DNA of 64,000 bases from Eledone cirrhosa. Taxonomy: Eukaryota. This document shows positions 1 to 58,745 of the stretch, piece after piece. A model generated the notes under the pieces. It was not told the DNA's origin, searched no databases, and worked only from the letters and a program-made list of their open reading frames with translations. The stretch covers positions 114,638,001 to 114,702,000 of the forward strand of contig OZ024741.1 of NCBI GenBank assembly GCA_964016885.1, in the 5' to 3' direction. How positions within the stretch are numbered: position 1 is the stretch's first letter; each line of letters begins with the position of its first letter. Both the position numbers and the translations under genes were made by a program.

Positions 1-3000
1 CCCCAAATAAAAAAACGAGGCACCCAGATAAAAAACGGGGCACCCAAATAAAAAAACGGGGCACAGAAATAAAAAATGGGGCCCCCAAATACAAAAACGA
101 GGCACCCAGATAAAAAACGGGGCACCCAAATAAAAAAACGGGTCGCCCAAATAAAAAACGGGGTACCCAAATAAAAAAACGAGGCACCCATATAAAAAAC
201 GAGGCACCCATATAAAAAACGGACACCCAAATAAAAAACGAACCCCCCCATAAAAAACGGGTCACCCAATTAAAAAAAACGGGGCACCCAAATGAAAAAC
301 GGGGCACCCAGATAAAAAACGGCGCACCCAAATAAAAAAAACGGAGCACCCAAATAAAAAACGGGTCAACCAAATAAAAAACGGACCACCCCATAAAAAA
401 ACGGGGCACCCAAATGAAAAACGGACCCCCCCATAAAATAACGGGGCACCCAAATAAAGGAACGTGGGACCCAAATAAAAAACAGGGCACCCAAATAAAA
501 AACGGGGCAACCAAATAAAAAAAGGACCCCCCCATAAAAAAACGGGGCACCCAAATAAAAAAACGGGGCACCCAAATAAAAAACGGGGCACCCAAATAAA
601 AAAACGGGGCACCCAAATAAAAAACGGGGCAACCAAATAAAAAAACGGACCCCCCATAAAATAACCGGGCACCCAAATAAAAAACTGACCCCCCATAAAA
701 AAATGGGGCACCCAAATAAAAAAATTAACCCCCCCAAATAAATAACAGGGCACCCAAATAAAAAACGGGGCACCCAAATAAAAAACGGGTCAACCAAATA
801 AAAAACGGACCACCCCATAAAAAAATGGGGCACCGAAATGAAAAACGGACCCCCCCATAAAATAACGGGGCACCCAAATAAAGGAACGTGGGACCCAAAT
901 AAAAAACGGACCCCCCCATAAAAAAATGGGGCACCCAAATAAAAAACTAACCCCCCCAAATAAATAACGGGGCACCCAAATAAAAAACGAGGCACCCACA
1001 TAAAAAACGCGGCCCCCAAATGAAAAAACGAGGCACCCAGATAAAAAAGGGGGCACCCAAATAAAAAAACGGGTCGCCCAAATAAAAAATGGGGCACCCA
1101 AATAAAAAAACGAGGCACCCATATAAAAAACGAGGCAACCAAATAAAAAACGGACTCCCCCATAAAAAAACGGGGCACCCAAATTAAAAACGGACCCCAC
1201 CATAAAAAACGGGGCACCCAAATAAAAAAACGGGGCACAGAAATAAAAAACGGGGCACCCAAATAAAAAAACGGGGCACCCAAATAAAAAACGGGGACCC
1301 CAAATAAAAAAATGAGGCACCCAGATAAAAAACGGGTCGCCCAAATAAAAAACGGGGCACCCAAATAAAAAAAACGAGGCACCCATATAAAAAACGAGGC
1401 ACCCAAATAAAAAGCGGATTCCCCATAAAGAAACGGGGCACCCAAATAAAAAACGAACTCCCCCCATAATAAACGGGTCACCCAATTAAAAAAACGGGGC
1501 ACCCAAATGAAAAACGGGGCACCTAGATAAAAAACGGCGAACCCAAATAAAAAAAACGGAGCACCCAAATAAAAAACGGGTCAACCAAATAAAAAACGGA
1601 CCACCCCATAAAAAAACGGGGCACCCAAATGAAAAACCGACCCCCCCATAAATAACGGGGCACCCAAATAAAGGAACGTGTGACCCAAATAAAATACGGA
1701 CCACCCATAAAAAAATGGGGCACCCAAATAAAAAACTAACCCCCCCAAATAAATAACGGGGCACCCAAATTAAAAAACGAGGCACCCAAATAAAAAAACG
1801 GGGCACCCAAATAAAAAACGGGGCCCCCAAATAAAAAAACGAGGCACCCAGATAAAAGACGGGGCACCCAAATAAAAAAATGGGTTGCCCAAATAAAAAA
1901 AGGGGCACCCAAATAAAAAAACGAAGCACCCACATAAAAAACGAGGCCCCCAAATGAAAAAACGAGGCACCCAGATAAAAAACGGGGCACCCAAATAAAA
2001 AAACGGGTCGCCCAAATAAAAAACGGGGCACCCAAATAAAAAAACGGGTCGCCCAAATAAAAAACGGGGCACCCAAATAAAAAACAGGGTACCCAAATAA
2101 AAAACGAGGCAACCAAATAAAAAACGGACCACCCCATAAAAAAACGGGGCACCCAAATAAAAAACGGGGCCCCCAAATAAAAAAACGAGGCACCCAGATA
2201 AAAAACGGGGCACCCAAATAAAAAATGGGTCGCCCAAATAAAAAACGGGGCACCCAAATAAAAAAACGAGGCACCCACATAAAAAACAAGGCCCCCAAAT
2301 GAAAAAACGAGGCACCCAGATAAAAAACGGGGCACCCAAATAAAAAAATGGGGCACCCAAATAAAAAAAAGAGGCACCCAAATAAAAAACGGACTCCCCC
2401 ATAAAAAAACGGGGCACCCAAATGAAAAACGGACCCCACCATAAAAAACGGGGCACCCAAATAAAAAAACGGGGTGAAGAAATAAAAAACGGGGCCCCCA
2501 AATACAAAAACGAGGCACCCAGATAAAAAACGGGGCACCCAAATAAAAAAACGGGTCGCCCAAATAAAAAACGGGGCACCCAAATAAAAAAAACGAGGCA
2601 CCCATATAAAAAACGAGGCACCCAAATAAAAAACGGACTCACCCATAAAGAAACGGGACACCCAAATAAACCCCCCCCCATAATAAACGGGTCACCCAAT
2701 TAAAAAAACGAGGCACCCAAATGAAAAACGGGGCACCCAGATAAAAAACGGCGCACCCAAATAAAAAAAACGGAGCACCCAAATAAAAAACGGGTCAACC
2801 AAATGAAAAACGGACCCCCCCATAAAATAACGGGGCACCCAAATAAAGGAACGTGGGACCCAAATAAAAAACGGACCCCCCATAAAAAAATGGGGCACCC
2901 AAATAAAAAACTAACCCCCTCAAATAAATAACGGGGCACCCAAATTAAAAAACCGGACACCCAAATAAAAAACGGGGCACCCAAATAAAAAACGGGGCAC

Positions 3001-6000
3001 CCAAATAAAAAACGGGGCCCCCAAATAAAAAACGAGGCACCCAGATAAAAAACGGGGCACCCAAATAAAAAAATGGTTCGCCCAAATAAAAAACGGGGCA
3101 CCCAAATAAAAAAACGAGGCACCCACATAAAAAACGAGGCCCCCAAATGAAAAAACGAGGCACCCAGATAAAAAACGGGGCACCCAAATAAAAAAACGGG
3201 TCGCCCAAATAAAAAACGGGGCACCCAAATAAAAAAACGGGTCGCCCAAATAAAAAACGGGGCACCCAAATAAAAAACAGGGCACCGAAATAAAAAACGG
3301 GGCAACCAAATAAAAAACGGACCACCCCATAAAAAAACGGGGCACCCAAATAAAAAAACGGAGCACCCAAATAAAAAACGGGGCCCCCAAATAAAAAAAC
3401 GAGGCACCCAGATAAAAAACGGGGCACCCAAATAAAAAAACGGGGCACAGAAATAAAAAATGGGGCCCCCAAATACAAAAACGAGGCACCCAGATAAAAA
3501 ACGGGGCACCCAAATAAAAAAACGGGTCGCCCAAATAAAAAACGGGGTACCCAAATAAAAAAACGAGGCACCCATATAAAAAACCAGGCACCCATATAAA
3601 AAACGGACTCCCCCATAAAGAAACGGGACACCCAAATAAAAAACGAACCCCTCCATAAAAAACGGGTCACCCAATTAAAAAAACGGGGCACCCAAATGAA
3701 AAACGGGGCACCCAGATAAAAAACGGCGCACCCAAATAAAAAAAACGGAGCACTCAAATAAAAAACGGGTCAACCAAATGAAAAACGGACCCCCCCATAA
3801 AATAACGGGGCACCCAAATAAAGGAACGTGGGACCCAAATAAAAAACAGGGCACCCAAATAAAAAACGGGGCAACCAAATAAAAAAAGGACCCCCCCATA
3901 AAAAAACGGGGCACCCAAATAAAAAAACGGGGCACCCAAATAAAAAAACGGGGCACCCAAATGAAAAACGGGGCACCCAGATAAAAAACGGCGCACCCAA
4001 ATAAAAAAAACGGAGCACCCAAATAAAAAACGGGTCAACCAAATAAAAAACGGACCACCCCATAAAAAAACGGGGCACCCAAATGAAAAACGGACCCCCC
4101 CCATAAAATAACGGGGCACCCAAATAAAGGAACGTGGGACCCAAATAAAAAACGGACCCCCCATAAAAAAATGGGGCACCCAAATAAAAACTAACCCACC
4201 CAAATAAATAACGGGGCACCCAAATAAAAAAACGAGGCACCCACATAAAAAACGAGGCCCCCAAATGAAAAAACGAGGCACCCAGATAAAAAAGGGGGCA
4301 CCCAAATAAAAAAACGGGTCGCCCAAATAAAAAATGGGGCACCCAAATAAAAAAACGAGGCACCCATATAAAAAAACGAGGAACCCACATAAAAAACGGA
4401 CTCCCCCATAAAAAAACGGGGCACCAAAATTAAAAACGGACCCCACCATAAAAAACGGGGCACCCAAATAAAAAAACGGGGCACAGAAATAAAAAACGGG
4501 GCACCCAAATAAAAAAACGGGGCACCCAAATAAAAAACGGGGCACTCAAATAAAAAAACGGGTCGCCCAAATAAAAAACGTGGGACCCAAATAAAAAAAA
4601 CGAGGCACCCATATAAAAAACGAGGCACCCAAATAAAAAGCGGATTCCCCATAAAGAAACGGGGCACCCAAATAAAAAACGAACTCCCCCCATAATAAAC
4701 GGGTCACCCAATTAAAAAATCGGGGTACCCAAATGAAAAACGGGGCACCCAGATAAAAAACGGCGAACCCAAATAAAAAAAACGGAGCACCCAAATAAAA
4801 AACGGGTCAACCAAATAAAAAACGGACCACCCCATAAAATAACGGGGCACCCAAATAAAGGAACGTGTGACCCAAATAAAATACGGACCCCCTATAAAAA
4901 AATGGGGCACCCAAATAAAAAACTAACCCCCCCAAATAAATAACGGGGCACCCAAATTAAAAAACGAGGCACCCAAATAAAAAAACGGGGAACCCAAATA
5001 AAAAACGGGGCCCCCAAATAAAAAAACGAGGCACCCAGATAAAAGACGGGGCACCCAAATAAAAAAATGGGTCGCCCAAATAAAAAAACGAAGCACCCAC
5101 ATAAAAAACGAGGCCCCCAAATGAAAAAACGAGGCACCCAGATAAAAAACAGGGCACCCAAATAAAAAAACGGGTCGCCCAAATAAAAAACGGGGCACCC
5201 AAATAAAAAAACGGGTCGCCCAAATAAAAAACGGGGCACCCAAATAAAAAACAGGGTACCCAAATAAAAAACGAGGCAACCAAATAAAAAACGGACCACC
5301 CCATAAAAAAACGGGTCGCCCAAATAAAAAATGGGGCACCCAAATAAAAAAACGAGGCACCCAAATAAAAAACGGACTCCCCCATAAAAAAACGGGGCAC
5401 CCAAATGAAAAACGGACCCCACCATAAAAAACGGGGCACCCAAATAAAAAAACGGGGCGAAGAAATAAAAAACGGGGCCCCCAAATACAAAAACGAGGCA
5501 CCCAGATAAAAACGGGGCACCCAAATAAAAAAACGGGTCGCCCAAATAAAAAACGGGGCACCCAAATAAAAAAAACGAGGCACCCATATAAAAAACGAGG
5601 CACCCAAATAAAAAACGGACTCCCCCATAAAGAAACGGGACACCCAAATAAAAAACGAACCCCCCCATAATAAACGGGTCACCCAATTAAAAAAACGGGG
5701 CACCCAAATGAAAAACGGGGCACCCAGATAAAAAAAGGCGCACCCAAATAAAAAAAACGGAGCACCCAAATAAAAAACGGGTCAACCAAATAAAAAACGG
5801 ACCACCCCATAAAAAAACGGGGCACCCAAATGAAAAACGGACCCCCCCATAAAATAACGGGGCACCCAAATAAAGGAACGTGGGACCCAAATAAAAAACG
5901 GACCCCCCATAAAAAAATGGGGCACCCAAATAAAAAACTAACCCCCCCAAATAAATAACGGGGCACCCAAATTAAAAAACCGGACACCCAAATAAAAAAC

Positions 6001-9000
6001 GGGGCACCCAAATGAAAAACGGACCCCCCCCCATAAAATAACGGGGCACCCAAATAAAGGAACGTGGGACCCAAATAAAAAACGAACCCCCCATAAAAAA
6101 ATGGGGCACCCAAATAAAAAACTAACCCCCCCAAATAAATAACGGGGCACCCAAATTAAAAAACCGGACACCCAAATAAAAAACGGGGCACCCAAATAAA
6201 AAACGGGGCACCCAAATAAAAAACGGGGCACCCAAATAAAAAACGGTGCCCCCAAATAAAAAACGGGGCACCCAAATAAAAAAATGGTTCGCCCAAATAA
6301 AAAACGGGGCACCCAAATAAAAAAACGAGGCACCCACATAAAAAACAAGGCCCCCAAATGAAAAAACGAGGCACCCAGATAAAAAACGGGGCACCCAATT
6401 AAAAAAACGGGTCGCCCAAATAAAAAACGGGGCACCGAAATAAAAAACGGGGCAACCAAATAAAAAACGGACCACCCCATAAAAAAACGGGGCACCCAAA
6501 TAAAAAAACGGAGCACCCAAATAAAAAACGGGGCCCCCAAATAAAAAAACGAGGCACCCAGATAAAAAACGGGGCACCCAAATAAAAAAACGGGGCACAG
6601 AAATAAAAAATGGGGCCCCCAAATACAAAAACGAGGCACCCAGATAAAAAACGGGGCACCCAAATAAAAAAACGGGTCGCCCAAATAAAAAACGGGGTAC
6701 CCAAATAAAAAAACGAGGCACCCATATAAAAAACGAGGCACCCATATAAAAAACGGACACCCAAATAAAAAACGAACCCCCCCATAAAAAACGGGTCACC
6801 CATTTAAAAAAAACGGGGCACCCAAATGAAAAACGGGGCACCCAGATAAAAAACGGCGCACCCAAATAAAAAAAACGGAGCACCCAAATAAAAAACGGGT
6901 CAACCAAATAAAAAACGGACCACCCCATAAAAAAACGGGGCACCCAAATGAAAAACGGACCCCCCCATAAAATAACGGGGCACCCAAATAAAGGAACGTG
7001 GGACCCAAATAAAAAACAGGGCACCCAAATAAAAAACGGGGCAACCAAATAAAAAAAGGACCCCCCCATAAAAAAACGGGGCACCCAAATAAAAAAACGG
7101 GGCACCCAAATAAAAAACGGGGCACCCAAATAAAAAAACGGGGCACCCAAATAAAAAACGGGGCACCCAAATAAAAAACGGGGCAACCAAATAAAAAAAC
7201 GGACCCCCCATAAAATAACCGGGCACCCAAATAAAAAACTGACCCCCCATAAAAAAATGGGGCACCCAAATAAAAAAATTAACCCCCCCAAATAAATAAC
7301 GGGGCACCCAAATCAAAAAACAGGGCACCCAAATAAAAAACGGGGCACCCAAATAAAAAACGGGTCAACCAAATAAAAAACGGACCACCCCATAAAAAAA
7401 TGGGGCACCTAAATGAAAAACGGACCCCCCCCCATAAAATAACGGGGCACCCAAATAAAGGAACGTGGGTCCCAAATAAAAAACGGACCCCCCATAAAAG
7501 AATGGGGCACCCAAATAAAAACTAACCCCCCCAAATAAATAACGGGGCACCCAAATAAAAAACGAGGCACCCACATAAAAAACGAGGCCCCCAAATGAAA
7601 AAACGAGGCACCCAGATAAAAAAGGGGGCACCCAAATAAAAAAACGGGTCGCCCAAATAAAAAATGGGGCACCCAAATAAAAAAACGAGGCACCCATATA
7701 AAAAACGAGGCAACCAAATAAAAAACGGACTCCCCCATAAAAAAACGGGGCACCCAAATTAAAAACGGACCCCACCATAAAAAACGGGGCACCCAAATAA
7801 AAAAACGGGGCACAGAAATAAAAAACGGGGCACCCAAATAAAAAAACGGGGCACCCAAATAAAAAACGGGGACCCCAAATAAAAAAATGAGGCACCCAGA
7901 TAAAAAACGGGTCGCCCAAATAAAAAACGGGGCACCCAAATAAAAAAAACGAGGCACCCATATAAAAAACGAGGCACCCAAATAAAAAGCGGATTCCCCA
8001 TAAAGAAACGGGGCACCCAAATAAAAAACGAACTCCCCCCATAATAAACGGGTCACCCAATTAAAAAAACGGGGCACCCAAATGAAAAACGGGGCACCTA
8101 GATAAAAAACGGCGAACCCAAATAAAAAAAACGGAGCACCCAAATAAAAAACGGGTCAACCAAATAAAAAACGGACCACCCCATAAAAAAACGGGGCACC
8201 CAAATGAAAAACCGACCCCCCCATAAATAACGGGGCACCCAAATAAAGGAACGTGTGACCCAAATAAAATACGGACCCCCCATAAAAAAATGGGGCACCC
8301 AAATAAAAAACTAACCCCCCCAAATAAATAACGGGGCACCCAAATTAAAAAACGAGGCACCCAAATAAAAAAACGGGGCACCCAAATAAAAAACGGGGCC
8401 CCCAAATAAAAAAACGAGGCACCCAGATAAAAGACGGGGCACCCAAATAAAAAAATGGGTTGCCCAAATAAAAAAAGGGGCACCCAAATAAAAAAACGAA
8501 GCACCCACATAAAAAACGAGGCCCCCAAATGAAAAAACGAGGCACCCAGATAAAAAACGGGGCACCCAAATAAAAAAACGGGTCGCCCAAATAAAAAACG
8601 GGGCACCCAAATAAAAAAACGGGTCGCCCAAATAAAAAACGGGGCACCCAAATAAAAAACAGGGTACCCAAATAAAAAACGAGGCAACCAAATAAAAAAC
8701 GGACCACCCCATAAAAAAACGGGGCACCCAAATAAAAAACGGGGCCCCCAAATAAAAAAACGAGGCACCCAGATAAAAAACGGGGCACCCAAATAAAAAA
8801 TGGGTCGCCCAAATAAAAAACGGGGCACCCAAATAAAAAAACGAGGCACCCACATAAAAAACAAGGCCCCCAAATGAAAAAACGAGGCACCCAGATAAAA
8901 AACGGGGCACCCAAATAAAAAAATGGGGCACCCAAATAAAAAAAAGAGGCACCCAAATAAAAAACGGACCACCCCATAAAAAAACGGGGCACCCAAATGA

Positions 9001-11035
9001 AAAACGGACCCCCCCATAAAATAACGGGGCACCCAAATAAAGGAACGTGGGACCCAAATAAAAAACAGGGCACCCAAATAAAAAACGGGGCACCCAAATG
9101 AAAAACGGACCCCACCATAAAAAACGGGGCACCCAAATAAAAAAACGGGGTGAAGAAATAAAAAACGGGGCCCCCAAATACAAAAACGAGGCACCCAGAT
9201 AAAAAACGGGGCACCCAAATAAAAAAACGGGTCGCCCAAATAAAAAACGGGGCACCCAAATAAAAAAAACGAGGCACGCATATAAAAAACGAGGCACCCA
9301 AATAAAAAACGGACTCCCCCATAAAGAAACGGGACACCCAAATAAAACCCCCCCCCATAATAAACGGGTCACCCAATTAAAAAAACGAGGCACCCAAATG
9401 AAAAACGGGGCACCCAGATAAAAAACGGCGCACCCAAATAAAAAAAACGGAGCACCCAAATAAAAAACGGGTCAACCAAATGAAAAACGGACCCCCCCAT
9501 AAAATAACGGGGCACCCAAATAAAGGAACGTGGGACCCAAATAAAAAACGGACCCCCCATAAAAAAATGGGGCACCCAAATAAAAAACTAACCCCCCCAA
9601 ATAAATAACGGGGCACCCAAATTAAAAAACCGGACACCCAAATAAAAAACGGGGCACCCAAATAAAAAACGGGGCACCCAAATAAAAAACGGGGCCCCCA
9701 AATAAAAAACGAGGCACCCAGATAAAAAACGGGGCACCCAAATAAAAAAATGGTTCGCCCAAATAAAAAACGGGGCACCCAAATAAAAAAACGAGGCACC
9801 CACATAAAAAACGAGGCCCCCAAATGAAAAAACGAGGCACCCAGATAAAAAACGGGGCACCCAAATAAAAAAACGGGTCGCCCAAATAAAAAACGGGGCA
9901 CCCAAATAAAAAAACGGGTCGCCCAAATAAAAAACGGGGCACCCAAATAAAAAACAGGGCACCGAAATAAAAAACGGGGCAACCAAATAAAAAACGGACC
10001 ACCCCATAAAAAAACGGGGCACCCAAATAAAAAAACGGAGCACCCAAATAAAAAACGGGGCCCCCAAATAAAAAAACGAGGCACCCAGATAAAAAACGGG
10101 GCACCCAAATAAAAAAACGGGACACAGAAATAAAAAATGGGGCCCCCAAATACAAAAACGAGGCACCCAGATAAAAAACGGGGCACCCAAATAAAAAAAC
10201 GGGTCGCCCAAATAAAAAACGGGGTACCCAAATAAAAAAACGAGGCACCCATATAAAAAACCAGGCACCCATATAAAAAACGGACTCCCCCATAAAGAAA
10301 CGGGACACCCAAATAAAAAACGAACCCCTCCATAAAAAACGGGTCACCCAATTAAAAAAACGGGGCACCCAAATGAAAAACGGGGCACCCAGATAAAAAA
10401 CGGCGCACCCAAATAAAAAAACGGAGCACTCAAATAAAAAACGGGTCAACCAAATAAAAAACGGACCACCCCATAAAAAAACGGGGCACCCAAATGAAAA
10501 ACGGACCCCCCCATAAAATAACGGGGCACCCAAATAAAGGAACGTGGGACCCAAATAAAAAACAGGGCACCCAAATAAAAAACGGGGCAACCAAATAAAA
10601 AAAGGACCCCCCCATAAAAAAACGGGGCACCCAAATAAAAAAACGGGGCACCCAAATAAAAAAACGGGGCACCCAAATAAAAAACGGGGCACCCAAATAA
10701 AAAACGGGGCAACCAAATAAAAAAACGGACCCCCCATAAAATAACCGGGCACCCAAATAAAAAACTGACCCCCCATAAAAAATGGGGCACCCAAATAAAA
10801 AACTAACCCCCCCAAATAAATAACGGGGCACCCAAATTAAAAAACGGGGCACCCAAATAAAAAACGGGGCACCCAAATAAAAAACGGTGCACCCAAATCA
10901 AAAACGGACCTCCCATAAAAAAACGGGGCACCCAATTAAAAAACGGACAACCCCCATAAAAAACGGGGCACCCAAGTAAAAAACGGCCCCCTCCCATAAA
11001 AAAACGGGGCACCGAAATAAAAAACGGATCCCCCA
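1..11035. repeat. Tandem satellite array, ~20-21 bp monomer (CCCAAATAAAAAA[A]CGGGGCA) with higher-order repeats; continues beyond the window start
   Basis: Continuous monomers seen directly. Diagnostic variants (CACAGAAAT/GAAGAAAT, AAGGAACGTG) recur periodically, and near-identical artefactual ORFs recur at offsets of 6575 and 6677 bp. Monomers degenerate over the last ~150 bp. Confidence 0.98.
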
Positions 11036-11045: not shown

Positions 11046-11233
11046 CGGTGGATTGGCAGTATCGGTGGAGGGTCGGACGCCATGCTTTCCACATAGTTAC
11101 ATCCCTTTACGATCTGAGTTCAAATCCCGCCGAGGTTGACTTTGCCTTTCATCCTTACGGGGTCGATAAAATAAAGTACCAGTAATGTACTGGTAATTGC
11201 TGGCCTTGTGCCTAAAGTAGAAACAATTATTAT
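11046..11233 (+). mobile_element. tRNA-derived SINE (B-box GAGTTCAAATCCC; central GACTTTGCCTTTCATCCTTACGGGGTCGATAAAATAAAGTACCAG; ATT tail)
   Basis: B-box plus conserved body; further copies at 23341-23527, 38468-38680, 38841-38960 and 62091-62218. Confidence 0.9.
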
Positions 11234-12696
11234 TTGATGACTGAAAACGTCATCAATAGATGTGTATTTTTATACCTTTAGCGGCGATGAACGAGGTGAC
11301 ATGTTATTTAGAGCCAGATTTATATATACGGGGTATGTAAGCTGTCTTATACAATATCTGTATACATGTTTAGCTTTGACTCCACCTAGCAGACATGCTG
11401 GGGTACCCGGTGGATTTAATGAAATGGGCACTTTGTATTATTTCCTTTTCTGTTTTGTATAGATTGTTTACCCACGTGCTGTTCCGGATTGCTGCCGCTT
11501 TTACCAGGAATTGTTCGTGACTGGATTGTGTGTGGAGACTTTGGTTATATAAAATCTGGAGCTGAAAATTGAACACATTACGCTATACGATCTGGGATCT
11601 TAAACATATGGTTTTTTTTAATGTATATATCCAGCATGTCATTCATGTTACTAGATGAGATGCTATGTTTGAATGATAGTATAAATCCAACTATTTTTAC
11701 TTTTGAACGATCTACATATATGTATAATTTAGACTGATTGGTTATCTAATGACAATCCTATTTCTATATAACCCCTAGACAATCGGGACATATGTGGCCG
11801 ATTGGTCTAGCCTATGCGGTTAATATACATGTGTAGTAACTCTTTGCCAGTTGGTTTTACAGTAACTGAAATAATATTGTGGGGCTATTGCTGCAGTTCT
11901 ATCTTATAGTAACCCCGCTTTGCTTGTCTATAGCTTGCTTTATTTGTGGTGCCTGTCTATATACTTGTTATACTCTGCTCTATCCTGTAATAACCCCACT
12001 TCGCTTGTGTATAGCTTGCATTTATGTGTTGCCTGTCTATATGCTTGTGGAACACCCTTGGGCTACGTAATTCAGGTGCCTACCAGTATACCTTGTATAT
12101 GTATATATACCATGGAGGGGATTTTAATTACTCTGGTCTTTCTGGATGTACCTTAAGAACATATTAGTGCTTATATAACTATAAGTTACTGGGATCCTAT
12201 TCACTTATATAGGGACCAGTGCTTAAATTCCTCTGGCTTTTTTATGTGCTTAAAACTCTTCCTTTTTTTCTTTTTTCTTCTTTCTTTTTTCACCTCTTTC
12301 CCTTTAAAATAAAAAAAAAATCTTCTACCTTTTTATTCACTTTTTATCTCTTTATATTATCTTCCTTTTACTTTTTTATTATGTTTTAACCACTGTTTGT
12401 ATTTTTGATTTTGTGTGCCATCAATTGTATCTGCATCTTGTGGGATCTGCTTGTGCGCTAGCATTTAGCTGTGGTGCTTAACAACCCCAGCATATACTCT
12501 CTCCTTATTCGCCATCTCCGATCTCCCTATCTTTACCCTCTATTGTATTCCGATTGTTCGTGTGACTAAGCTTGGTAGAGCTTATACTCAGCACTGTGTT
12601 TATTAAGCTCTGATGATTCCTACCAAACGGTATGGATGAAACATTGTAAGCAAATAAAAACTGTTTGAGTATGTAAGTGTTCTTTGGTTTCTTTTA
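11234..12696 (+). mobile_element. Putative non-autonomous Penelope-like element ending in hammerhead + AATAAA before (TA)n
   Basis: Non-coding ~1.45 kb with a hammerhead fold at 12607-12651, then AATAAA and (TA)n. Internal ~60-bp direct repeat at 11909-11968/11990-12048. Left boundary uncertain. Confidence 0.5.
12607..12651 (+). ncRNA. Minimal type I hammerhead ribozyme
   Basis: GCT-CTGATGA-T-TCCTACC-AAAC-GGTATGGA-T-GAAAC-ATT-GTA^AGC: intact CUGAUGA and GAAA core, stem I GCT/AGC, stem II TCC-TACC/GGTA-GGA, GUA cleavage triplet. Confidence 0.75.
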
Positions 12697-12838
12697 CATA
12701 TATATATGTATGCATATATATATATATATATAAATTAGAAATTAGAAATTATAAGCTTTCACCGTATTTTAGACTAAAGACATTTCTAGCCTGATAGTGA
12801 GGTTTATAACCCTCGGAGAAATGGAAAAAGATGAGTGT

Positions 12839-12909
12839 TGCCGTACATGCGAGTCGAACCCACATCTTTGGTTATCCGGACCACTGTGCTACCATTACAC
12901 CAATACACA
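12839..12909 (-). ncRNA. tRNA-like Pol III cassette (copy 1) within the 291-bp unit
   Basis: Reverse complement of the cassette at 13647-13717; A-box, B-box and downstream T5. Confidence 0.65.
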
Positions 12910-13129
12910 TCCCGTCTCCTTCCATTCGAATTAGAAGCTATGAACTTAGCAAGTGAATGATAAACAAGCAAATTATAAATGTAAACATGTAAGTATGTTT
13001 TTGAAACGGTGCGCGAGTTTGAAAATTAGAAATTAGAAATTATAAGCTTTCACCGTATTTTAGACTAAATAAATTTCTAGCCTGATAGTGGGGTTTATAA
13101 CCCTTGGAGAAATGGAAAAAGATGAGTGT

Positions 13130-13200
13130 TGCCGTACATGCGAGTCGAACCCACATCTTTGGTTATCCGGACCACTGTGCTACCATTACACCAATACACA
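13130..13200 (-). ncRNA. tRNA-like Pol III cassette (copy 2)
   Basis: Same as copy 1, offset by 291 bp. Confidence 0.65.
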
Positions 13201-13420
13201 TCCCGTCTCCTTCCATTCGAATTAGAAGCTATGAACTTAGCAAGTGAATGATAAACAAGCAAATTATAAATGTAAACATGTAAGTATGTTTTTGAAACGG
13301 TGCGCGAGTTTGAAAATTAGAAATTAGAAATTATAAGCTTTCACCGTATTTTAGACTAAAGAAATTTCTAGCCTGATAGTGGGGTTTATAACCCTTGGAG
13401 AAATGGAAAAAGATGAGTGT

Positions 13421-13491
13421 TGCCGTACATGGGAGTTGAACCCACATCTTTGGTTATCCGGACCACTGTGATACCATTACACCAATACACA
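13421..13491 (-). ncRNA. tRNA-like Pol III cassette (copy 3)
   Basis: Same cassette with a few substitutions. Confidence 0.62.
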
Positions 13492-13646
13492 TCCCGTCTC
13501 CTTCCATTCGAATTAGAAGCTATGAACTTAGCAAGTGATGAACTCGCGCACCGTTTCAAAAACATACATGTTTATATTTATAATTTGCTTGTTTATCATT
13601 CACTTGCTAAGTTCATAGCTTCTAATTCGAATGGAAGGAGACGGGA

Positions 13647-13717
13647 TGTGTATTGGTGTAATGGTAGCACAGTGGTCCGGATAACCAAAGATGTGGGTTC
13701 GACTCCCATGTACGGCA
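13647..13717 (+). ncRNA. tRNA-like Pol III cassette (inverted copy); not a canonical tRNA
   Basis: A-box TGGTGTAATGG, D-arm GTGT/GCAC, anticodon arm GTGGT-CCGGATA-ACCAA, T-arm GTGGG-TTCGACT-CCCAT, weak acceptor stem, T7 terminator at 13727-13733. Confidence 0.7.
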
Positions 13718-13901
13718 ACAGTCATCTTTTTTTCCATTTCTCCGAGGGTTATAAACCCCACTACCAGGCTAGAAATTTCTTTAGTCTAAAATACGGTGAA
13801 AGCTTCTAATTTCTAATTTCTAATTTTCAAACTCGCGCACCTTTTCAAAAACATACTTACATGTTTACATTTATAATTTGCTTGTATATATATAAATATA
13901 A

Positions 13902-13953
<52 letters not shown>

Positions 13954-14700: not shown

Positions 14701-14849
14701 CCCAGTTCTATCATCTCATTTCTACATCTGAGTAAACTGGAGCAATGTGAAATAAAGTGTCTTGCTCAAGGAAACAACACATCACCTGGTCTGAGAATTG
14801 AACTCACAACATTTCGATTGCAAGCCCAATGCTCTAACCACTAAGCCAT
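14701..14849 (-). mobile_element. tRNA-derived CORE-type SINE
   Basis: Reverse complement reads TGGCTTAGTGG (A-box), GAGTTCAATTC (B-box), then CCTTGAGCAAGACACTT...CCAGTTTACTCAGATGTAGAAATG (CORE-domain-like). Confidence 0.8.
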
Positions 14850-14894: not shown

Positions 14895-14930
<36 letters not shown>

Positions 14931-15579
14931 CGGAAAAAATGAAACGAAATTTCATTTCCCACTCTTAGTACGGCTGTTACTTAAATATAAGTATGTACAC
15001 GTACATACATATATGTATACAGACGTACAGTAGTATGTATATATATACATACATGCACACATATATATATGCACGTATGGAATCACCGAACATTTATTAT
15101 AATGCTCGGTGTGTTTGTAAACAAACATCCCGTATTAAGCCGTAGTGTCCAGCAACCATCGTTGCTCGTTTGTTCAACACTGACAAAGGAACGCTGTACT
15201 AGTTTCAAGCTTATCAGCTATCGTCAGCAACGTATACCTTCCTGCCAGATTGTTGAATGTATATACTTACCTTATGCATATTAACGGCTGAGTAGCCCAA
15301 TTTGCATATCGAATGGGTTAATCGGCCGGGTGCACCGAAAACGATAAACGAAAAAAATGAAACGAAATTTCATTTCCCACTCTTAGTACGGTTGTTACTT
15401 AAATATAAGTATGTACACGTACATACATATATGAATACATACGTACAGTAGTATGTATATATATATATACATACATGCACACATATATATATATATATGC
15501 ACGTATGGATTCACCGAACATTTATTATAATGCTCGGTGTGTTTGTAAACAAACATCCCGTATTAAGCCGTAGTGTCCA
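14931..15579 (-). mobile_element. Partial-tandem non-coding element (418-bp period) carrying a hammerhead, flanked by (TA)n
   Basis: Direct repeats 14931-15151 and 15349-15579; the unique middle contains the hammerhead at 15192-15232. Confidence 0.7.
15192..15232 (-). ncRNA. Minimal type I hammerhead ribozyme
   Basis: Reverse complement: CGTTG-CTGACGA-T-AGCT-GATA-AGCT-T-GAAAC-TA-GTA^CAGCG; 5-bp stem I, 4-bp stem II, palindromic stem III ACTAGT, intact core. Confidence 0.8.
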
Positions 15580-15864: not shown

Positions 15865-16084
<220 letters not shown>

Positions 16085-16096
16085 ATATATATATAC

Positions 16097-16451
16097 AAAA
16101 TAAACATATGAAACAATCACAGGGGATAATTTGTAAAGAGTGTAAGCACACACAGCTAGGTAGGTAACTAATTAAAGTTTAACTAGAACTTAAAAATGAT
16201 TAATATTGTATATATTTCATTAAATAAAGAAATATATTTCACCATCAATCGGTAAATCACAGTAGTCAAATCCCGAATCGTCAGCAAAGGAGAAGATTTA
16301 ACTATCTGCGTTTACGCAGCAAATGCAAATCTGTGATTTACTAGAAGCACGTGTTGCATTTAAAAAAAAATACACACTAGTTACCTACCTAGCTGTGTGT
16401 GCTTACACTATTTACAAATTATCTCCTGTGATTGTTTTATGTGTTTATTTT
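16097..16451. mobile_element. TA-flanked element with ~75-bp terminal inverted repeats
   Basis: 16097-16170 is the imperfect reverse complement of 16378-16451. Confidence 0.75.
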
Positions 16452-16579
16452 ATATATGTATATATATATATTTCTAGTTGATATAAATGTTCGGATCTAT
16501 TCATTGGAATCTTTGAGCATATTCTACAGAGGTTATGGCACATGTTTCTCAGACATGACATCCTTAATTTAATTTTGGT

Positions 16580-16607: not shown

Positions 16608-16612
<5 letters not shown>

Positions 16613-16841
16613 AAAGGTGCCAAGATAACGATAGAATCTTACCTTAGCAAATTTAACGATCCCAAATACCATCAGGTTTAAATTAAATTCTGTCTTCCTA
16701 ACAACAAGTCATCTCCGACAGATCTTTTAAGACCTTCACCGGGATATCCCCTTGATAAAAGGTTTTTAAACCTGAAAATATTTAAAATAGTTAAATTTGC
16801 TAAGTTAATATTCTATCGTTATCTTGGCACATTTACATTTC
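16608..16841. repeat. ~50-bp inverted repeat element adjacent to (TA)n
   Basis: GTGCCAAGATAACGATAGAAT..CTTAGCAAATTTAAC vs GTTAAATTTGCTAAG..ATTCTATCGTTATCTTGGCAC. Confidence 0.75.
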
Positions 16842-16921
16842 TAATGCATTTTATGGTGTTTAAAATTATTTAAATTTATGTTTCCTTTTCAAGAATGCTT
16901 GAAGCAAACTACAGCACTCTG

Positions 16922-16975
<54 letters not shown>

Positions 16976-21039: not shown

Positions 21040-21101
21040 TAGCAAGATGTATGTACGTATGTATGTATGTATGTATGTATGTATGTATGTATGTATGAAT
21101 G

Positions 21102-24100
21102 TATTCTTCTGGATTTATAATTTCACAAATTTTTCCCAATAGAGAAAGAGTCGGTTTCTAACATAGACACAAGACTCTCTCATTGGAATTTACGCAACAT
21201 CAACTAGGTAGATTATGTATGCATGCATACATGCATGTGTAGATATGGATGTTATTGTATGTGTGGATGTGTATGTTTTGAGTTGTATGTGTGCCTGTGT
21301 ATATGCTTTGTATCTGTACATGTGTATATGCAGTTATTAGATGCAACATTTTTTTAATGTTTTACATATTTTTACTGTTCCGTTCATGGATTGTACTTGT
21401 AATTTCCTAACTAGTTGTGTTCTTTCTGTTCCTGCGAAGCCTAGCTTCTCAAGATTTATATTGAGGCAGCTACTAACATACCCCAGTGCCCCAATAATCA
21501 CAGGCATAAATCTAAAGGTGTAATCAGGGTGGAGTATCTGCAGATTTCTCATCAGTTCTGCGTAAATATTCTCCTTTTCGCTAATCTTTGATATTATATT
21601 GGCATCTGCTGGGCAGCTAATTTCCACTACTGTGCATGCTTTCTTCTCCCTGTCCCATATCATAATATCTGGTCTGTTATGCCTGCATTTTATTGGGGTT
21701 ATTACTGGAGCATTCCACCAGTACTCTTTCATATTATGTACATGGATGTCTTCCACATTTCTGTAGCTTTTAATGTATTTATTATCGGGGCTATCTTTTT
21801 TACGGATTGCATTGTACAGTGTTTTAGACACTACATCATGCATCATAGGTAGATAGTACCGCGATGTCATCTTTGGACAGCTGCTGATGACATGGGTGAT
21901 ATCTTCGATGTTAATTCTGCAGAGTCTGCACTTGTTATCACATCTAGGTGTTTTGCTTGCATCCCTATCTCTTTTGTGAATCAGGTATTTCGTGTTAATT
22001 TCTTGTTCTTGGATTGCAAAAGCGTATCCTTCAAAGTGGGAGCCAATATAGCGGTTGTTGGTCCAAGACAGACTACTTTCCTTATCTATATTACTCTCAC
22101 TCTGGAGCTTCCTGGCAACATATCCATGCATGATTTTTTGCTGATAAGCATGCAGTTTTTCATCCATGGATTCACTGCGATACAGCTCAGCGACTTCCTG
22201 GGGTGTGAGATTTTGATTATCACACAGGGAATATCTCTCGAGGAGTTCCTTCCCAACTCTCACGATCTTATCTGTTTCATGCAGATAGACTTGCTCGAGA
22301 GACGAGCTCCTACGCTTCGAGGTTCGTAGATGTTATCGGAAGGATATGATGCGACATTCAAATGCTGTCTGGACTGATGTTAGGCCTCTGCCTCCCTGCT
22401 TACATTTAAAGTAAAGGCGGTCTATGTCACTGTTGATGTGGATGTTTCCGGTGTTGTTTAGTATCTTTAGAGATCCAACATCAACTGCTTGGATTTCGTC
22501 TATCGCCCAATTGAGTATTCCAAACGTTGGTGTTAGGACAGGCACAGCAAACACATTGTGAGCCAGTTTTGTTTTGCGCAGAGAGTTCCGATGACCAAAT
22601 CTTTCTTAATCGGGTGTAGTATTCCTTGGTTACGCGTTCCTTATTACAGATACCATTATAGGATATGTTCTCATCTATCCCCAGGTAACTGTAGGAGTCC
22701 TCATCAGATATCGGTGAAAGAGTTAGGCCATTGATGACAATGTTGCTAGATTGGGTTGTTGTTTTCCCCCGCTTTACCGTCATATATGAGCATTTATCTT
22801 GGCCAAACTCCATTCCTATATCCTTTGAGAACGTTGTAACCAGGTCAAGATTTTTCTTCATCCCATTCTTGGCATAGAGTTTCAGATCATCCACAAAGAA
22901 ATTATGGGTTAGGTTCGTATTTTTGTCCTCCCGTGAGCCAACGATGCATCCCTCACATTTCTTGAGCAGAAAGGACAAGGGGTTTAATGACAGGTTGAAT
23001 AATATCACAGAGAGACTGTCCCCCTGAAATATACCCCTGCGATATTTTATTTTATCAGTGAAAATAGAATCCTCCCTCTCTGTCTTTAACCTTAGGATAG
23101 TAGCCCAAGAAGAAGACAGCCTCTCTATGGCTCTGACAATAATGTCTGGGACTTTAGCAAGTTGGAGGGCCTCTATCATCCAAGAGTGGGGAACAGAATC
23201 GAAAGCTTTCCTGTAGTCCAGCCAGACTGTAGCCATATTCCTCCTAAGTTGTCGCACCTCCGACATCGCAGTTTTGTTCAGCACATCCCCAAACCTCTTT
23301 CTTTCCAGGTGCTTGTTCATCTGTGATGATGTTATTATTTTGGATTGGCAGTATCGGTAGAGAGTCAGACACCATGCTTTGAAGCATAGAGTTAGTCATT
23401 TTATGATCTGAGTTCAAATCCCGCCGAGGTTAACTTTGCCATTCATCCTTACGGGGTCGATAAAATAAAGTACCAGTAATGCACTGGGTAATTTGCTGGC
23501 CGTGTGCCTAAAATAAAAACAATTATTTTCACAGTGATCTTGGAGGAATAGGTTCAGACAGGCTGTATACATCTTATACATCAGGTTCTGGCATGCAATG
23601 GGTCGGTAGCTTTTTGCTAAGTGGGTGTCTTTGTTCTTGGGGATCAGTAATGTTTGTGTTAATGTCAACCATTCTGGTATAAGTGTATCTCCCTTAAGAA
23701 CTTGTTGGTAGAGGTCAGTAAAATACCTCCGATATAATATCAGTTTTTTGTACCAGTAGCCTACAATCATGTCTCTTCCTGGTGTTTTCTTATCTTGGAG
23801 TTTTCCTATCACAGTCTCAAGGGTACCCTCACTTATTTCGTATGTTTTTGTTGTAGTGTAGGAGCAATAGTTCTTTCGGATTTCTTTTAGCCACACTGCA
23901 TCTTGGTTGAAATTCTTCTTTTCACCCCATATTTTTCTCCAAAAGGAATCTATGTCTTTCTGGGATGGGGCCTCAGTGACACTTACTATTTTGTTCTTCA
24001 TATCTCTATAGACTGATGTTTGGTTTCGTCTGATATCTTTTATTAAGCACTTTTCTCTCATCTAACTTCTTCAGGTATCGGCGTTTTTCGTTAACAGCTC

Positions 24101-25240
24101 TCAATTCTTGTTTGAGGGTGATCAGCTTATATTGAACAGTTCTGGTTCTACTGTTACCAAACATCGTCTCTATTTTATTTTTCACTCTTTGTTGGTGAGG
24201 AGTGAGGTTTTTTTGTGTTTGTTTGCATGCAAGGAGCATTGTCACATATCCTATGGTTTTTCGTAAGTCAGCAATCTTTTTTTCTATTTTAGTTATATAT
24301 GATGGTATTTTTGGTGGTGTTTTGTTCTTGTTAATATCTCTGCTATCACCAAGATAATGTTTCACTGTCGTTGCTAAGGCATATAAACAGGCGTTGATTT
24401 GCTAAAATGTTGGGGTTTTTATCCGTCGTAAATATTCATCCCCTATTTCGTCAATAACACGTATTATTTCATTATTTGTCTTTTTTTAATTAAATATTAT
24501 CGTTTTAATACGTTCAGCAAGAGAGATGTTTATACATGAATTAATTTCTCCATGGAAGATTTCGTTGAGGGAAATTTTCAATTGTTTATACTTTTGATTA
24601 TTATTATTATCGATAGTATTTTCCACAACAGTCGAGGCAGACTCGGATGGTACACGTGGTGTCAAATTTCTTCGATTATTATTATTATTATTTCTTCGAT
24701 TATTATTATTATCGATAGTGTTTTCCCCAGCATTCGAGGTAGACTTAGATGGTACACGGGGTGTCAAGTTTCTTACATTCATAGTTGTTTCAAGACACTG
24801 TTCGACCTGGTTGCTAGGAAGTCTAATAGCATGGCGACCTGTAGCACGTGTTGTTGATCCCATGTTTGTTGTGGGGGACTTACAATTAATAATATTTATC
24901 TTATTTTTACGTTCAACAAACGTCGCTTGTTGGTGTAATTGTTTCGCTGTGAAATAATTTAGCCCTGGGTCCATTTCATCCCAGTGTAGCTTCATTCTGT
25001 TCATATAGTCAATGGAGGGATTGTTCTTTGCCATTTTATAACAATTAAATAAATCATCATGAAGTTCGCAACTCCAAGAGAAATGCGATTTATAATTTCG
25101 GTTTCTTCTGTAGCTACAACTGAATACATTTTGTTTACCTTTCTCATTGTTTGTCTTCGATACTTCCTTAATTTTGTTGATGTTGATGTTGTGTTCAGCC
25201 ATGTTGTTTGTAGCAAATCCTTGTAAAATGAATTATGTAT
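21102..25240 (-). mobile_element. Near full-length R4/Dong-type RLE LINE (family A), frameshifted
   Basis: ORF pieces 25202-21337: RT (YRPIAC, WLDYRKAFDSVPH, GIFQGDSLS, FFVDD), CCHC knuckle (CRLC..H..SSC), RLE (RPDI..E..CP). 3' end abuts (TATG)n at 21047-21101. Confidence 0.93.
23341..23527 (+). mobile_element. tRNA-derived SINE inserted in the Dong RT region
   Basis: Interrupts the DHCENN|IITD coding sequence; short TTATT duplication at the flanks. Confidence 0.9.
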
Positions 25241-25503: not shown

Positions 25504-28500
25504 GGCGACCTACGTAGTAAATCGAATCATCGTGAGCTCCGCAAAGGTTTGTTATTTTCAGTTGTTTAAATTGCCATTCATGGAAAATTTTTATTGTTAA
25601 CTGTATATAAGTGCACATACATTGTTATCTGAAAAGTGTTGCGAAAAGCCGATAACAGCCGCTGAAGTACGGGAGGCAATGACTGGCTGCACAAGGGGTA
25701 AATCGCCTGGTTTGGATGGTCTGTCCTATGAACTTTACGTACAGATGCCAGACTTGTTCGGAGGCCTCTTGGCGGACGTCTACTGCAACTGGCAACAGAA
25801 CGGGAGAATTCTCAGCTCTGAGAGCCAAGGAGCTGTGGCACTGCTGAGAAAGGATCCGAACAAGGGTGATAACATAGATAATTTCAGGCCCATAACTCTG
25901 CTAAACACAGAGTTCAAGATTTTGGCCAAGGTGCTAGAAAAGAGGTTGGCGCTTGTCGTTGGTGGTCTGGTCGGAGAGGCCCAGACATGCGCCATTCCCG
26001 ACAGATCCACGGCAACCTCCACCTCATGCGATACATCGTAGAGAGGGTAGCTAGGGAAACTGGCACGGGTGGGTCCTTGATCAATTTAGATCAGTCGAAA
26101 GCCTTCGATAGGGTCGACCATCGTTACCTAGCGGCAGTCCTGAGGGCGGCTGGCTTTGGGCCCGTCTTCAGAGGCTGGATCGTTGCCATGCACAGCAACA
26201 TCTGCTCTGTGGTGAGAGTAAACTGTCACCTTTCGGAACCGTTCAACATCATGCGCTCAGTCCGCCAAGGAAAGGATGTCCCCTCTCGTCCCTCTTGTAC
26301 GTATTGACTCTCGAGCCATTACTGCACAAACTGGAGACGTTGAGGGGGGTTCCGCGACAACCACCACCCCAACCACCACCGCGATAACATAAACAAAAGA
26401 AACAAATAAATTAACTCCTGATATCGAAATGAATTCAACCAAAATTAACTCTTCCACACCGAACACCACTGACGCCACCACCACCACAACTGAAACTAAA
26501 ATTAATAATAACAAAAATAACGATAACAACAACAGCAACAATGACATTAAGAAAACCACCCTGAGTTTTGCCAGAGTAGCAAAACAGTGCGAAGCATTTC
26601 AGGTAACTCTGGAGGAATTAGAAGAAGCCAAAAATATTATAAAGAAAGATGGGTACAGGGTCAGCCTCACCCCCCACCTAATAAAATGGAGCATCGGCGC
26701 CTATACACCGTGTCTTATCGAACAATTAATATAAAATCGCGCCGAGTGGAACGGGCATCTGAGTCCCAAATCCAAAAAGCTTTGGGACATGTGTGGGCAA
26801 AAAAACCCCACATCAGACGTGGGTAGAAATATGGAACCGTGGACGTGTTCTTTGAAACACCACAGGAGGCTAGAGAACACTCCATGGTCCCATTAAGAAG
26901 TGACAACTTCACACTCGTCCCAAGCTACTGTGGCCAGAGACTATTAAAGATCAGGGTCACCCACCTTCCACCGGCCATCGAAATTCCCTGGCTAATAGCT
27001 GCCGTCCTCGCCGGCATCGAAGCCAACACAAAGATAATCGAAATAGCGAAAGAAAAGCAGGAGAACTCGTCAGAATAGAGTCCATTAGGTTGAGTAAGGC
27101 GTTAGCAATAGAAAAAAATAGAGCAGAGGAGAATTAGTTAGAAAATTAGACGAGGCGCTTAGCAAAGGGATCGCGACCGACGTACTTGCGGCGAAATTGG
27201 CCCTTGACCAATTCTTCAATGCAAAGCACGAAGGCTGCGTTGTCAGAGCTAGGGTGCGTGCTCTCAGACACGAGGGGACGAAAGCCGTTCAATGGGGCCT
27301 AGTGGTGGAGGCGCGTCGTGGCAACAAAGCCACGATCCGGTCTTTGGTGCACCACGACGGGCGCATGCTACTCGATCCCGGGCAAATCTGTGTGAAGCTT
27401 TTCAGCGACACTTCGTACAGCTGTTCGGGGGCAGCGGTGGGCCGGATCGGGGGATGGACTTTAGTGTCTACCTCGACGGACTGCCGCGGCTCTCGGCCAC
27501 TGGGGCGGAGTGTTGCGAAAATCCGATAACAGCCGGTGAAGTACAGGAGGCAATGACTGGCTGCACAATGGGTAAATCGCCTGGTTTGGATGGTCTGCCC
27601 TATGAACTTTACGTACGGATGCCAGACTTGTTCGGAGGCCTCTTGGCGGACGTCTACTGCAACTGGCAACAGAACGGGAGAATTCCCAGCTCTGTGAGCC
27701 GAGGAGCTGTGGCGCTGCTGAGAAAGGATCCGAACAAGGGGGATAACATAGATAATTTTAGGCCCATAACTCTGCTAAACACAGAGTTCAAGATTTTGGC
27801 CAAGGTGCTAGAAAAGAGGTTGGCGCTTGTCGTTGGTGGTCTGGTGGGAGAAGCCCAGACATGCGCCATTCCCGACAGATCCATCCACGGCAACCTACAC
27901 CTCATGCGATACATCGTAGAGAGGGTAGCTAGGGAACCTGGCACGGGTGGGTCTTTGATCAATTTAGATCAGTCGAAAGCCTTCGATAGTGTCGACCATC
28001 GTTACCTAGCGGCAGTCCTGAGGGCGGCTGGCTTTGGGCCCGTCTTCAGAGGCTGGATCACTGCCATGCACAGCGACATCTGCTCTGTGGTGAGAGTGAA
28101 CGGTCACCTTTCGGAACCGTTCAACATCATGCGCTCGGTTCGCCAAGCATGTCCCCTCTCGTCCCTCTTGTACGTATTGACTCTCGAGCCATTACTGCAC
28201 AAACTGGAGACGTTGAGGGGGATACCGCGCGAACTAGGATGCGGAAGATCCGTGTCAGTATATGCGGAAGACGTCACCGTAGTGGTGTCGAACGCCAAAC
28301 ACATCGAGGCGATCGGCACTACACTAAGAGAATACGAAGCGGTAACAGGAGCAATGATCAACCAGGAAAAGTCAGTGGGCCTGCAGCTCGGCACCTGGAG
28401 AGGCAGGTCCATGCCGTCCAACAGCGTCGTCGGGCGCTGGACGGACGGACCGGTTAAATTGCTAGGGGTCTGGTTCGGTCCGAACCTCCCGACGGACAAA

Positions 28501-29870: not shown

Positions 29871-29897
29871 ATTATTATTATTATTATTATTATTATT

Positions 29898-37250: not shown

Positions 37251-37360
37251 TGTATGTATGTATGTATGTATGTATGTATGTATGTATGTATGTATGTATG
37301 TATGTATGTATGTATGTATGTATGTATGTATGTATGTGCGTATGTGCGTATGTATGTATA

Positions 37361-38135
37361 TGTTCTTCTGGTTTTATAATTTCACAAATTTTTGCCAATA
37401 GAGAGAGAGTCGGTTTCTAACATAGATACAAGACTCTCTCATTGGAATTTACACATCAACTAGGTAGAAGATATCTATGCATGTCTGCATGCATGCATGC
37501 ATGCATGTGTGTGCAGTTATTGATGTTATTGTATGTGTGGATGTGGATCTTTTGAGTTGTATGTGTGCATGTGCATATGCTTTGTGACTGTAAATGTGAA
37601 TATGCAGTTATTAGATGCAGAATGTTTGGAATGTTTTACATATTTTTACTGTTCCATTAATGGATTGTACTTGTAATTTCCTAACTAGTTGTGTTCTTTC
37701 TGTTCCCGTGAAGCCCAGCTTCTCAAGATTTGTATTGAGGCAATTACTAATATATCCCAGTGCCCCAATAATCACAGGCATAAATCTGAAGGTATAGTTA
37801 GGGTGGAGTATCTGCAGATGTTTCTCCTTTTCGCTAATCCTTGATATTATATTGGCATCTGCTGGGCAGCTAACTTCCACTACTGTGCATGCCTTCTTTT
37901 CCCTGTCCCATATCATTATATCTGGTCTGTTATGCCTGCATTTTATTGGGTTTTTACTGGAACACTCCACCAGTATTCTTTCGTATTATGTATATGTATG
38001 TCTTCCACATTGCTGTAGCTTTTAATGTGTTTATTATCGGGCTATCTTTTCTACGGATTGCATTGTACAGTGTTTTGGCCACTACATCATGCCTCATGGG
38101 TAGATAGTACCGCGATGACATCTTTGGACAGCTGC
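37361..38135 (-). mobile_element. R4/Dong family A 3' fragment (RLE domain + 3'UTR) between (TATG)n tracts
   Basis: ORF 37611-37970 RPDIMIWD..EVSCP; 3'UTR matches 21102-21336. Confidence 0.9.
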
Positions 38136-38216
38136 TTATGTATGTATGTATGTATGTATGTATGTATGTATGTAGGTATGTATGTATGTATGTATGTATG
38201 TATGTATGTACGTATG

Positions 38217-58727: not shown

Positions 58728-58745
58728 TGTATGTATGTTTGTATA

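Follow-up and report, generated by a model that had tools for sequence, protein, structure and literature searches.

The window, a stretch of 64,000 nucleotides of Eledone cirrhosa DNA, contains a 291-bp unit built around a degenerate tRNA-like cassette that is repeated head to tail and then inverted between two (TA)n tracts, with the ends of the two arms being reciprocal within the unit. We lean towards a model whereby this locus arose as a single non-autonomous retro-insertion into (TA)n by a Penelope-like (Naiad/Neptune-type) enzyme through two-ended priming on one multimeric RNA. Penelope-type or circular-template reverse transcription had been proposed in a sequence-only reading and is supported by the architecture of the array, the reciprocal ends, their sum to whole units and the hammerhead-bearing, TA-terminated neighbours in the window. 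Reciprocity and the whole-unit total make the case for a Penelope-type origin stronger than it was in that reading. All the evidence for it comes from one locus, and mobility of the unit is putative.

Tandem Repeats Finder reports a period of 291 with 2.8 copies and 98% matches at 12732-13538, and BLAST aligns the inverted arm at 13541-13889 (349 bp) with unit positions 229-291 plus 1-288. The array had been described as a direct trimer plus an inverted copy; it is real, and its copy counts are corrected to 2.8 units in the direct part (12732-13540) and 1.2 units in the inverted arm. (TA)n tracts touch both outer ends. With the unit numbered on the plus strand of copy 2, the features are the following.

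12698..12731, no strand: left (TA)n target tract, interrupted
12732..13022, minus strand: copy 1, full 291-bp unit (BLAST)
12752-12732: 3' end of copy 1 in the tRNA sense, with the (A/C)TAATTT(CTAATTT)2 repeat, adjoining the TA tract; putative priming site 1
13023..13313, minus strand: copy 2, full unit
13314..13540, minus strand: copy 3, unit 1 to about 228/229, stopping at the unit position of the outer end of the inverted arm
13538..13542, no strand: head-to-head inversion junction with a 3-nt ambiguity; one parsing gives a 1-nt microhomology (A)
13541..13826, plus strand: inverted near-full unit, positions 288 to 1
13827..13889, plus strand: 59-63-bp extension ("tail" offset), unit 291 to 229-233; putative priming site 2
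13885..13937, no strand: right (TA)n target tract

The extension ends at the right TA tract with a 4/5 match to TATAT. Private to the inverted near-full unit are four substitutions, and it also has lost 4 bp and has a lengthened T run. The three unit junctions are all identical, with zero added bases. Pairwise comparison of the four long copies gives 4-7 substitutions in the 228-291 columns that each pair has in common, bearing out the claim that they are nearly identical. BLAST and nhmmer found no further copies inside the 64-kb window, and a 130-aa ORF at 13417-13809 has no Pfam match. Phage records yielded just a 35-nt tRNA match (2/50,697), and a 24-nt exact unit pattern gave no matches in bacterial and archaeal genomes; both results are uninformative for a eukaryotic repeat.

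Reciprocity of the ends is the feature that was absent from the first reading and the part worth following. The direct arm runs from unit position 1 to 228/229 and the inverted arm from 229-233 to 288, such that the inner end of each arm lies within 4 nt of the outer end of the other, and the two outer ends lie 59-63 nt apart in the unit. Once the inverted arm is flipped by script, the arms together make up an integral 4.0-mer, with 1134-1139 matches against four tandem units of 1164 nt across nine breakpoint choices. In a post hoc simulation with a tolerance of +/-4 nt, the chance of such an arrangement for four random ends was 0.001, or 0.003 with any pairing allowed. The TA-proximal ends do fall at different points of the unit, as originally observed (1 versus 229-233), but the permutation is not arbitrary, because the inner end of either arm matches the outer end of the other. 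The arms lie head to head, and at each TA tract the outer end is a 3' end in the tRNA sense. This polarity fits two-ended target-primed synthesis only if the RNA was the tRNA-sense strand; the other strand misfits.

In our model, the template would be the tRNA-sense RNA strand of the 291-nt unit carrying the degenerate tRNA, a single strand of three units that may have been circular or a linear multimer with unit-bounded ends. The enzyme would prime DNA synthesis from both cut ends of the TA target on the same RNA: primer 1 would start at unit position 1 and run 291+228 nt until meeting primer 2, and primer 2 would start at 229-233 and run about 350 nt to site 1 or to the RNA 5' end. On a circular template, each cDNA would halt at the primer of the other; on a linear multimer, the first cDNA would halt at the second primer and the second at the unit-bounded 5' end. 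The two cDNAs would be joined head to head, a later unequal exchange would add copy 2, and the 59-63-nt offset would represent a PLE-type tail. One template primed at two points would explain both coincidences of the arm ends. Within the unit, no explanation of unit-length ends was found (no hammerhead and no Rfam ribozyme). Inr-like words occur seven times per unit, including one at the unit boundary, and we gave the latter little weight because the pattern recurs so often.

A trimeric original insert is suggested by the history of the copies. Sites 83 and 119 split the copies 2:2 and conflict on a tree, a conflict that is resolved if copy 2 combines the left part of copy 3 with the right part of copy 1. 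Copy 2 resembles copy 3 in its left part and is identical to copy 1 in its right part, and 291-bp segments taken from unit phase 83-118 show one difference as opposed to four at phase 0, a comparison that takes the minimum over 225 phases with few informative sites. Copy 2 is likely a later tandem duplication or recombinant of its neighbours with a crossover at unit 83-118, either here or in the source, in which case the original insert would have been a trimer. Leaving copy 2 aside, private substitutions number 3, 4 and 4 per unit in a star-like pattern of about 1.3%. This pattern fits one event about 1.3% old in which identical templates would have decayed independently; a slightly mixed source array instead of identical templates is possible.

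Published descriptions of Penelope-like elements (PLEs) agree with this architecture in several respects. In excerpts of Craig 2021 (PMC8557442), Naiad/PLE insertions are partially tandem and lie directly next to an inverted copy that is 5'-truncated; they have a tail of 30-40 bp, target (TA)n and lack a canonical hammerhead. The excerpted supplement gives a (TA)n preference for 5/5 cephalopod Naiads. According to excerpts of Frangieh 2024 (PMC11167929), a PLE protein cleaves and extends both strands of AT-rich DNA, synthesis begins at two neighbouring sites inside the RNA, one on either side of the tail, and multi-copy RNA is proposed as template. The locus has tandem copies, an adjacent inverted copy on the 5' side with 3' ends outward and a (TA)n target, the inverted-copy feature holding if the RNA was the tRNA-sense strand. 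It is like Naiad/EN+ PLEs and derivatives such as MRC1 in its tandem organization, its adjacent 5'-side inverted copy and its offset ends (PMC8557442, PMC11167929), and like Naiad/EN+ PLEs in its target and in the absence of a canonical hammerhead; in the excerpted sources, Naiads occur in Octopus species. It is unlike them in that the 291-bp unit has no ORF and is built round a tRNA-like cassette, and in that the offset is 59-63 nt, as measured at a single locus, versus the published 30-40 bp. We found no sequence link to an autonomous family, the 3' ends of Naiad_Obim and Naiad_Ovul (excerpts of roughly 300-350 nt, compared by eye) showing no similarity to the unit, and reciprocal arm ends are not described in the excerpted PLE texts. 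A search for a PLE protein remnant beside the array gave no Pfam family in 11/11 short ORFs at 11241-12603.

The unit resembles a non-autonomous PLE passenger or a retrozyme in its working, yet it is not a retrozyme because a hammerhead is absent. As in the non-LTR retrozymes described in excerpts of Cervera and de la Pena 2020 (PMC7229834) and Li 2026 (10.64898/2026.07.22.740005), which have units of about 300 bp and dimeric to small multimeric forms, and for which PLE dependence and circular RNA intermediates are proposed, the unit is short (291 nt, within 170-400 nt) and has a GC content below 45% (36.8%). It lacks the type I hammerhead that defines them: a descriptor scan of either strand allowing up to two core substitutions gave no match, and no ribozyme was among 64 Rfam matches to E 10, a search in which Rfam also missed the neighbouring minimal hammerheads. 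We rejected a near-match hammerhead (an 8-bp AT-rich stem around GAAAGCTTA) because of three mismatches in the CUGANGA core, HDV-like descriptor matches because they comprise merely the T arm and acceptor of the cassette, and Rfam miRNA matches because they reflect the long hairpin and lie far below gathering scores. It is tempting to speculate that the unit is a ribozyme-less retrozyme, in which host tRNA-processing enzymes would cut the cassette once per unit, the products of partial cutting would be ligated into multimeric RNA circles, and such a circle would be primed at two points by a Penelope-like dimer from both ends of a TA break, each cDNA stopping at the other's primer and leaving reciprocal ends. 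We consider this quite improbable; if true, the unit would belong to a tRNA-derived family moved by Penelope-like elements and not by LINEs, and the locus would preserve in the genome a trace of the way in which inverted PLE structures arise.

Hammerhead-like motifs are present in the surroundings of the unit. In 11028-64000, a descriptor scan found four minimal type I motifs versus 0.03 expected (0/100 shuffles):

12610..12648, plus strand: motif of a neighbouring element outside the unit, with a TA tract (likely the element 3' end) 49 nt further on
15227-15197, minus strand: hammerhead-like motif
52979-52931, minus strand: hammerhead-like motif
62638-62666, plus strand: hammerhead-like motif

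The stricter descriptor (stem III up to 9 nt), to which alone the shuffle null applies, gives four sites including 62638, and the looser one (stem III less strict) gives four including 16284 on the minus strand. For the motifs at 12610-12648 and 52979-52931, cleavage falls precisely 49 nt upstream of a TA tract, an arrangement that resembles PLE 3' ends, and the tract downstream of the former is the left tract of the 291-bp unit array; the remaining two lie 126 and 154 nt from a TA tract, and 4% of random positions have a TA tract within 50 nt. The unit and the hammerhead elements of the window share nothing beyond TA/AT-rich matches.

All four cassettes contain an A box, TGGTGTAATGG, a B box, GGTTC(G/A)ACTC, and a T run that begins 9 nt past the discriminator base, as had been read from the letters with a spacing of about 10 nt; the run is T7 in the inverted copy and T5 in the other three:

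12825..12909, minus strand: cassette 1 (tRNA-like 12909-12839), A box 12902-12892, B box 12860-12851, T5 12829-12825
13116..13200, minus strand: cassette 2, A box 13193-13183, B box 13151-13142, T5 13120-13116
13407..13491, minus strand: cassette 3, A box 13484-13474, B box 13442-13433, T5 13411-13407
13647..13733, plus strand: cassette 4 (tRNA-like 13647-13717), A box 13654-13664, B box 13696-13705, T7 13727-13733

The cassette lies mid-unit, 113 nt from the unit start and about 95 nt before the triple 7-mer at the unit end. Rfam tRNA scores are 34.1, 34.1, 33.3 and 32.0 bits (gathering score 29), and ARAGORN reports no tRNA genes in the whole window. The cassette has CCGGATA as its loop (C33, GGA, U37) and 4 nt in its variable region, the acceptor stem is paired at 5/7 positions, with three G-U, and the anticodon stem has 4 bp, which confirms the loop, short variable region and weak acceptor noted at the outset. 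In folding, the cloverleaf has an ensemble probability of 0.0002 and the T arm alone is stable. Together with the Rfam scores and the negative ARAGORN result, these defects uphold the view that this is not a working tRNA, and we rejected a functional tRNA gene on account of the acceptor pairing, C33, U37, the short anticodon stem and ARAGORN. By its sequence, the cassette is a degenerate tRNA-derived promoter cassette. It is ordinary by itself because cephalopod genomes are rich in tRNA-derived loci, with about 17,000 in the giant squid genome according to excerpts of PMC6962438.

The cassette is predicted to yield a discrete Pol III RNA of about 85-95 nt and, in our model, could be a passenger promoter. 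Because the T5-7 run directly follows it and should stop Pol III, this polymerase is an unlikely source of the multimeric template, which would need read-through from another promoter or leakiness; a tandem source locus may have supplied it through read-through by another polymerase or through leaky termination. In folding, a read-through RNA of the locus itself would pair over about 345 bp and leave a loop of 230 nt (MFE -669.8 kcal/mol). The suggestion that the inverted arms form more than 300 bp of dsRNA stands as the predicted fold of a hypothetical read-through transcript, whereas the suggested cruciform is unlikely to form with arms 61 nt or more apart, and here the spacer is 61 or 230 nt. 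In the fold of the unit, the cassette is closed by a 12-bp stem (z = -1.8, 7/200 shuffles), which we took as chance.

The inverted array could alternatively have been generated at the DNA level, which we regard as possible although rather unlikely. An integral head-to-tail array in a TA tract, supplied by local expansion or by reintegration of an extrachromosomal circle derived from a tRNA-like satellite, would have had its last 350 bp later inverted, or copied in when the fragile TA tract was repaired with template switching. If the inversion took place in situ, the 228/229 contiguity follows of itself and the geometry is the same, copy 2 shows that DNA rearrangement occurred here or in the source, and an integral array is expected of an array-derived circle, since extrachromosomal circles cut from arrays contain whole numbers of units. 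Moreover, amphibians are known to have tandem repeats of this tRNA-like kind, 200-360 nt long, among which PolIII/TAN, OAX, Rana/polIII, Hy/polIII and SINE-derived satellites, as described in excerpts of PMC10702118, share with our unit this tandem length, a tRNA-related segment and unrelated flanks; these form long arrays, whereas the present locus is a 4-unit insertion with an inverted arm and TA flanks. However, two separate events are required, one breakpoint has to lie no more than 3 nt from the edge of the array and bring zero TA bases into the central junction, and the match to published PLE architecture is not predicted. In a retrotransposition route with a different enzyme, which we consider improbable, an ordinary LINE (Tx1/L1-like, RTE-like or restriction-endonuclease type) would have used read-through RNA of the array in trans for twin priming. 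The arms do have L1 geometry as given in excerpts of PMC2912911, being contiguous and non-overlapping with both outer ends 3', short microhomologies, and one end at the RNA end and the other internal; the window has RT ORFs and an AP-endonuclease ORF, with 3/4 scanned LINE-like ORFs passing Pfam cut-offs, and the 7-mer triplet at the unit end resembles a SINE/LINE tail. Unlike L1 twin-priming products, the locus lacks poly(A) and combines a microsatellite target with a multimeric non-coding template and an inner end that is also at a unit boundary. In addition, the unit is unlike any LINE in the window (best E 0.15), inversion in trans is rare for short RNAs (1/5554 Alu insertions; PMC2912911, excerpt), and the LINEs of the window give the impression of being flanked by (TATG)n-type rather than (TA)n tracts.

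Products of DNA transposons or LTR elements, namely a Helitron/Helentron rolling-circle tandem, a foldback element or a Helenus-type TRIM array, are largely refuted and very improbable. Helitrons and Helentrons have TC...CTRR ends with a 3' hairpin, or sub-terminal inverted repeats, and rolling-circle products are integral multimers; the unit begins with TC and has CTAA near its end, but this CTAA is followed by TTTT before the next TC and no pairing involves the terminal 23 nt. Apart from AT-rich 8-mers, the unit has no perfect inverted repeats of at least 8 bp, and the outer ends are not mirror images as they would be in a foldback/TIR element. Helenus TRIMs, according to excerpts of Kojima 2024 (PMC10886601), are short repeats that bear a non-functional tRNA-like sequence with A/B boxes kept and can form arrays, and a 9-nt purine run does lie shortly upstream of the TG opening the cassette; unlike them, the unit has no LTR termini with TG...CA ends, no CA-TGG primer-binding site outside the cassette and no long polypurine tract (a purine run of 10 or more). 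An assembly artefact, either a fold-back read or a mis-join, is the least probable of these explanations. TA tracts and tandem or inverted structures are hard to assemble (PMC8557442, excerpt), and copy 2 differs from the matching halves of its neighbours by 1 base in 291, such that this copy could be an assembly expansion, but the inverted arm has its own four substitutions and two indels, mirror symmetry is absent at the junction and the two flanking sequences are not related. A tRNA-derived SINE was also rejected. The unit has A and B boxes and a simple-repeat tail (three copies of the 7-mer at the 3' end), but 113 nt precede the cassette, the array ends never lie at the tRNA head, and the T5-7 terminator lies between head and tail, nine nt after the cassette; the flanking TA tracts would mask any target-site duplication.

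A Pol III promoter within a tandem unit that needs multimeric copying is also found in the SINE-like Sm-alpha/Sj-alpha tandem retroposons of Schistosoma, in which, according to excerpts of PMC6765202, a hammerhead is present and Pol III reads through; our unit differs in its T5-7 stop 9 nt after the cassette and in the absence of a ribozyme. The origin of tandem and inverted PLE insertions is still undefined in the excerpted literature, and here both arm ends can be read in register because the unit is short and periodic. If other copies are also reciprocal, they would allow two-ended priming on one RNA, possibly a circle, to be tested directly from genomic sequence, and would define a tRNA-derived PLE passenger without a hammerhead. 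If they are not, the unit would be another of the decayed tRNA-like repeats of a cephalopod genome full of repeats and chiefly a source of false tRNA annotations. Neither the 291-bp unit family nor a tRNA-headed, hammerhead-less PLE passenger is described in the excerpted literature, with excerpts of PMC4758252, 10.1101/596502 and PMC6007223 containing nothing on the unit family, which is possibly catalogued in repeat databases (Repbase, Dfam).

The window as a whole is repeat-rich, with a satellite, many microsatellites and LINE fragments. The satellite, at 2-11027, has a 20-bp period, about 544 copies with 77% matches and strong strand asymmetry, and units of 81 bp and 142 bp are each present as two tandem copies at 11910-12066 and 50529-50801. 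At 14926-15579 lies a partial tandem in which a hammerhead motif separates direct repeats of 236 bp (93%); bounded on either side by TA tracts, it looks like a retrozyme or a non-autonomous PLE 1.5-mer. The segments 16056-16488 and 61063-61794 have 115-bp inverted arms (89% and 97%) adjoining TA tracts and may be MITE-like or PLE-type inverted insertions; a further segment between two TA tracts, 16608-16922, has by eye a short imperfect inverted repeat that BLAST did not report. At 14791-14848 on the minus strand, a tRNA-like head distinct from the cassette (Rfam 29.7 bits) is followed by a body and has a relative at 48064-48169; it is probably an ordinary SINE, and a dispersed 130-190-bp repeat, 85-97% identical (11046-11235, 23341-23527, 38531-38676 and 62088-62218), is probably a SINE body. 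Nested GC-richer LINE copies with AP-endonuclease and RT frames occupy 25601-34570 and 43374-47708, and a further RT-like fragment lies at 34671-36595. Fragments of RT-bearing LINE families are found at 21047-25232, 37306-38140, 41831-42513, 54151-57264 and 58212-60847, one with a 1037-aa open frame (RVT_1 and zf-RVT) and several flanked by (TATG)n tracts, possibly making them a microsatellite-targeting group. Residues 330-830 of the RT ORF at 54154-57261 match best, among the best 120 of 420 matches, an Argonauta hians protein with 62% identity.
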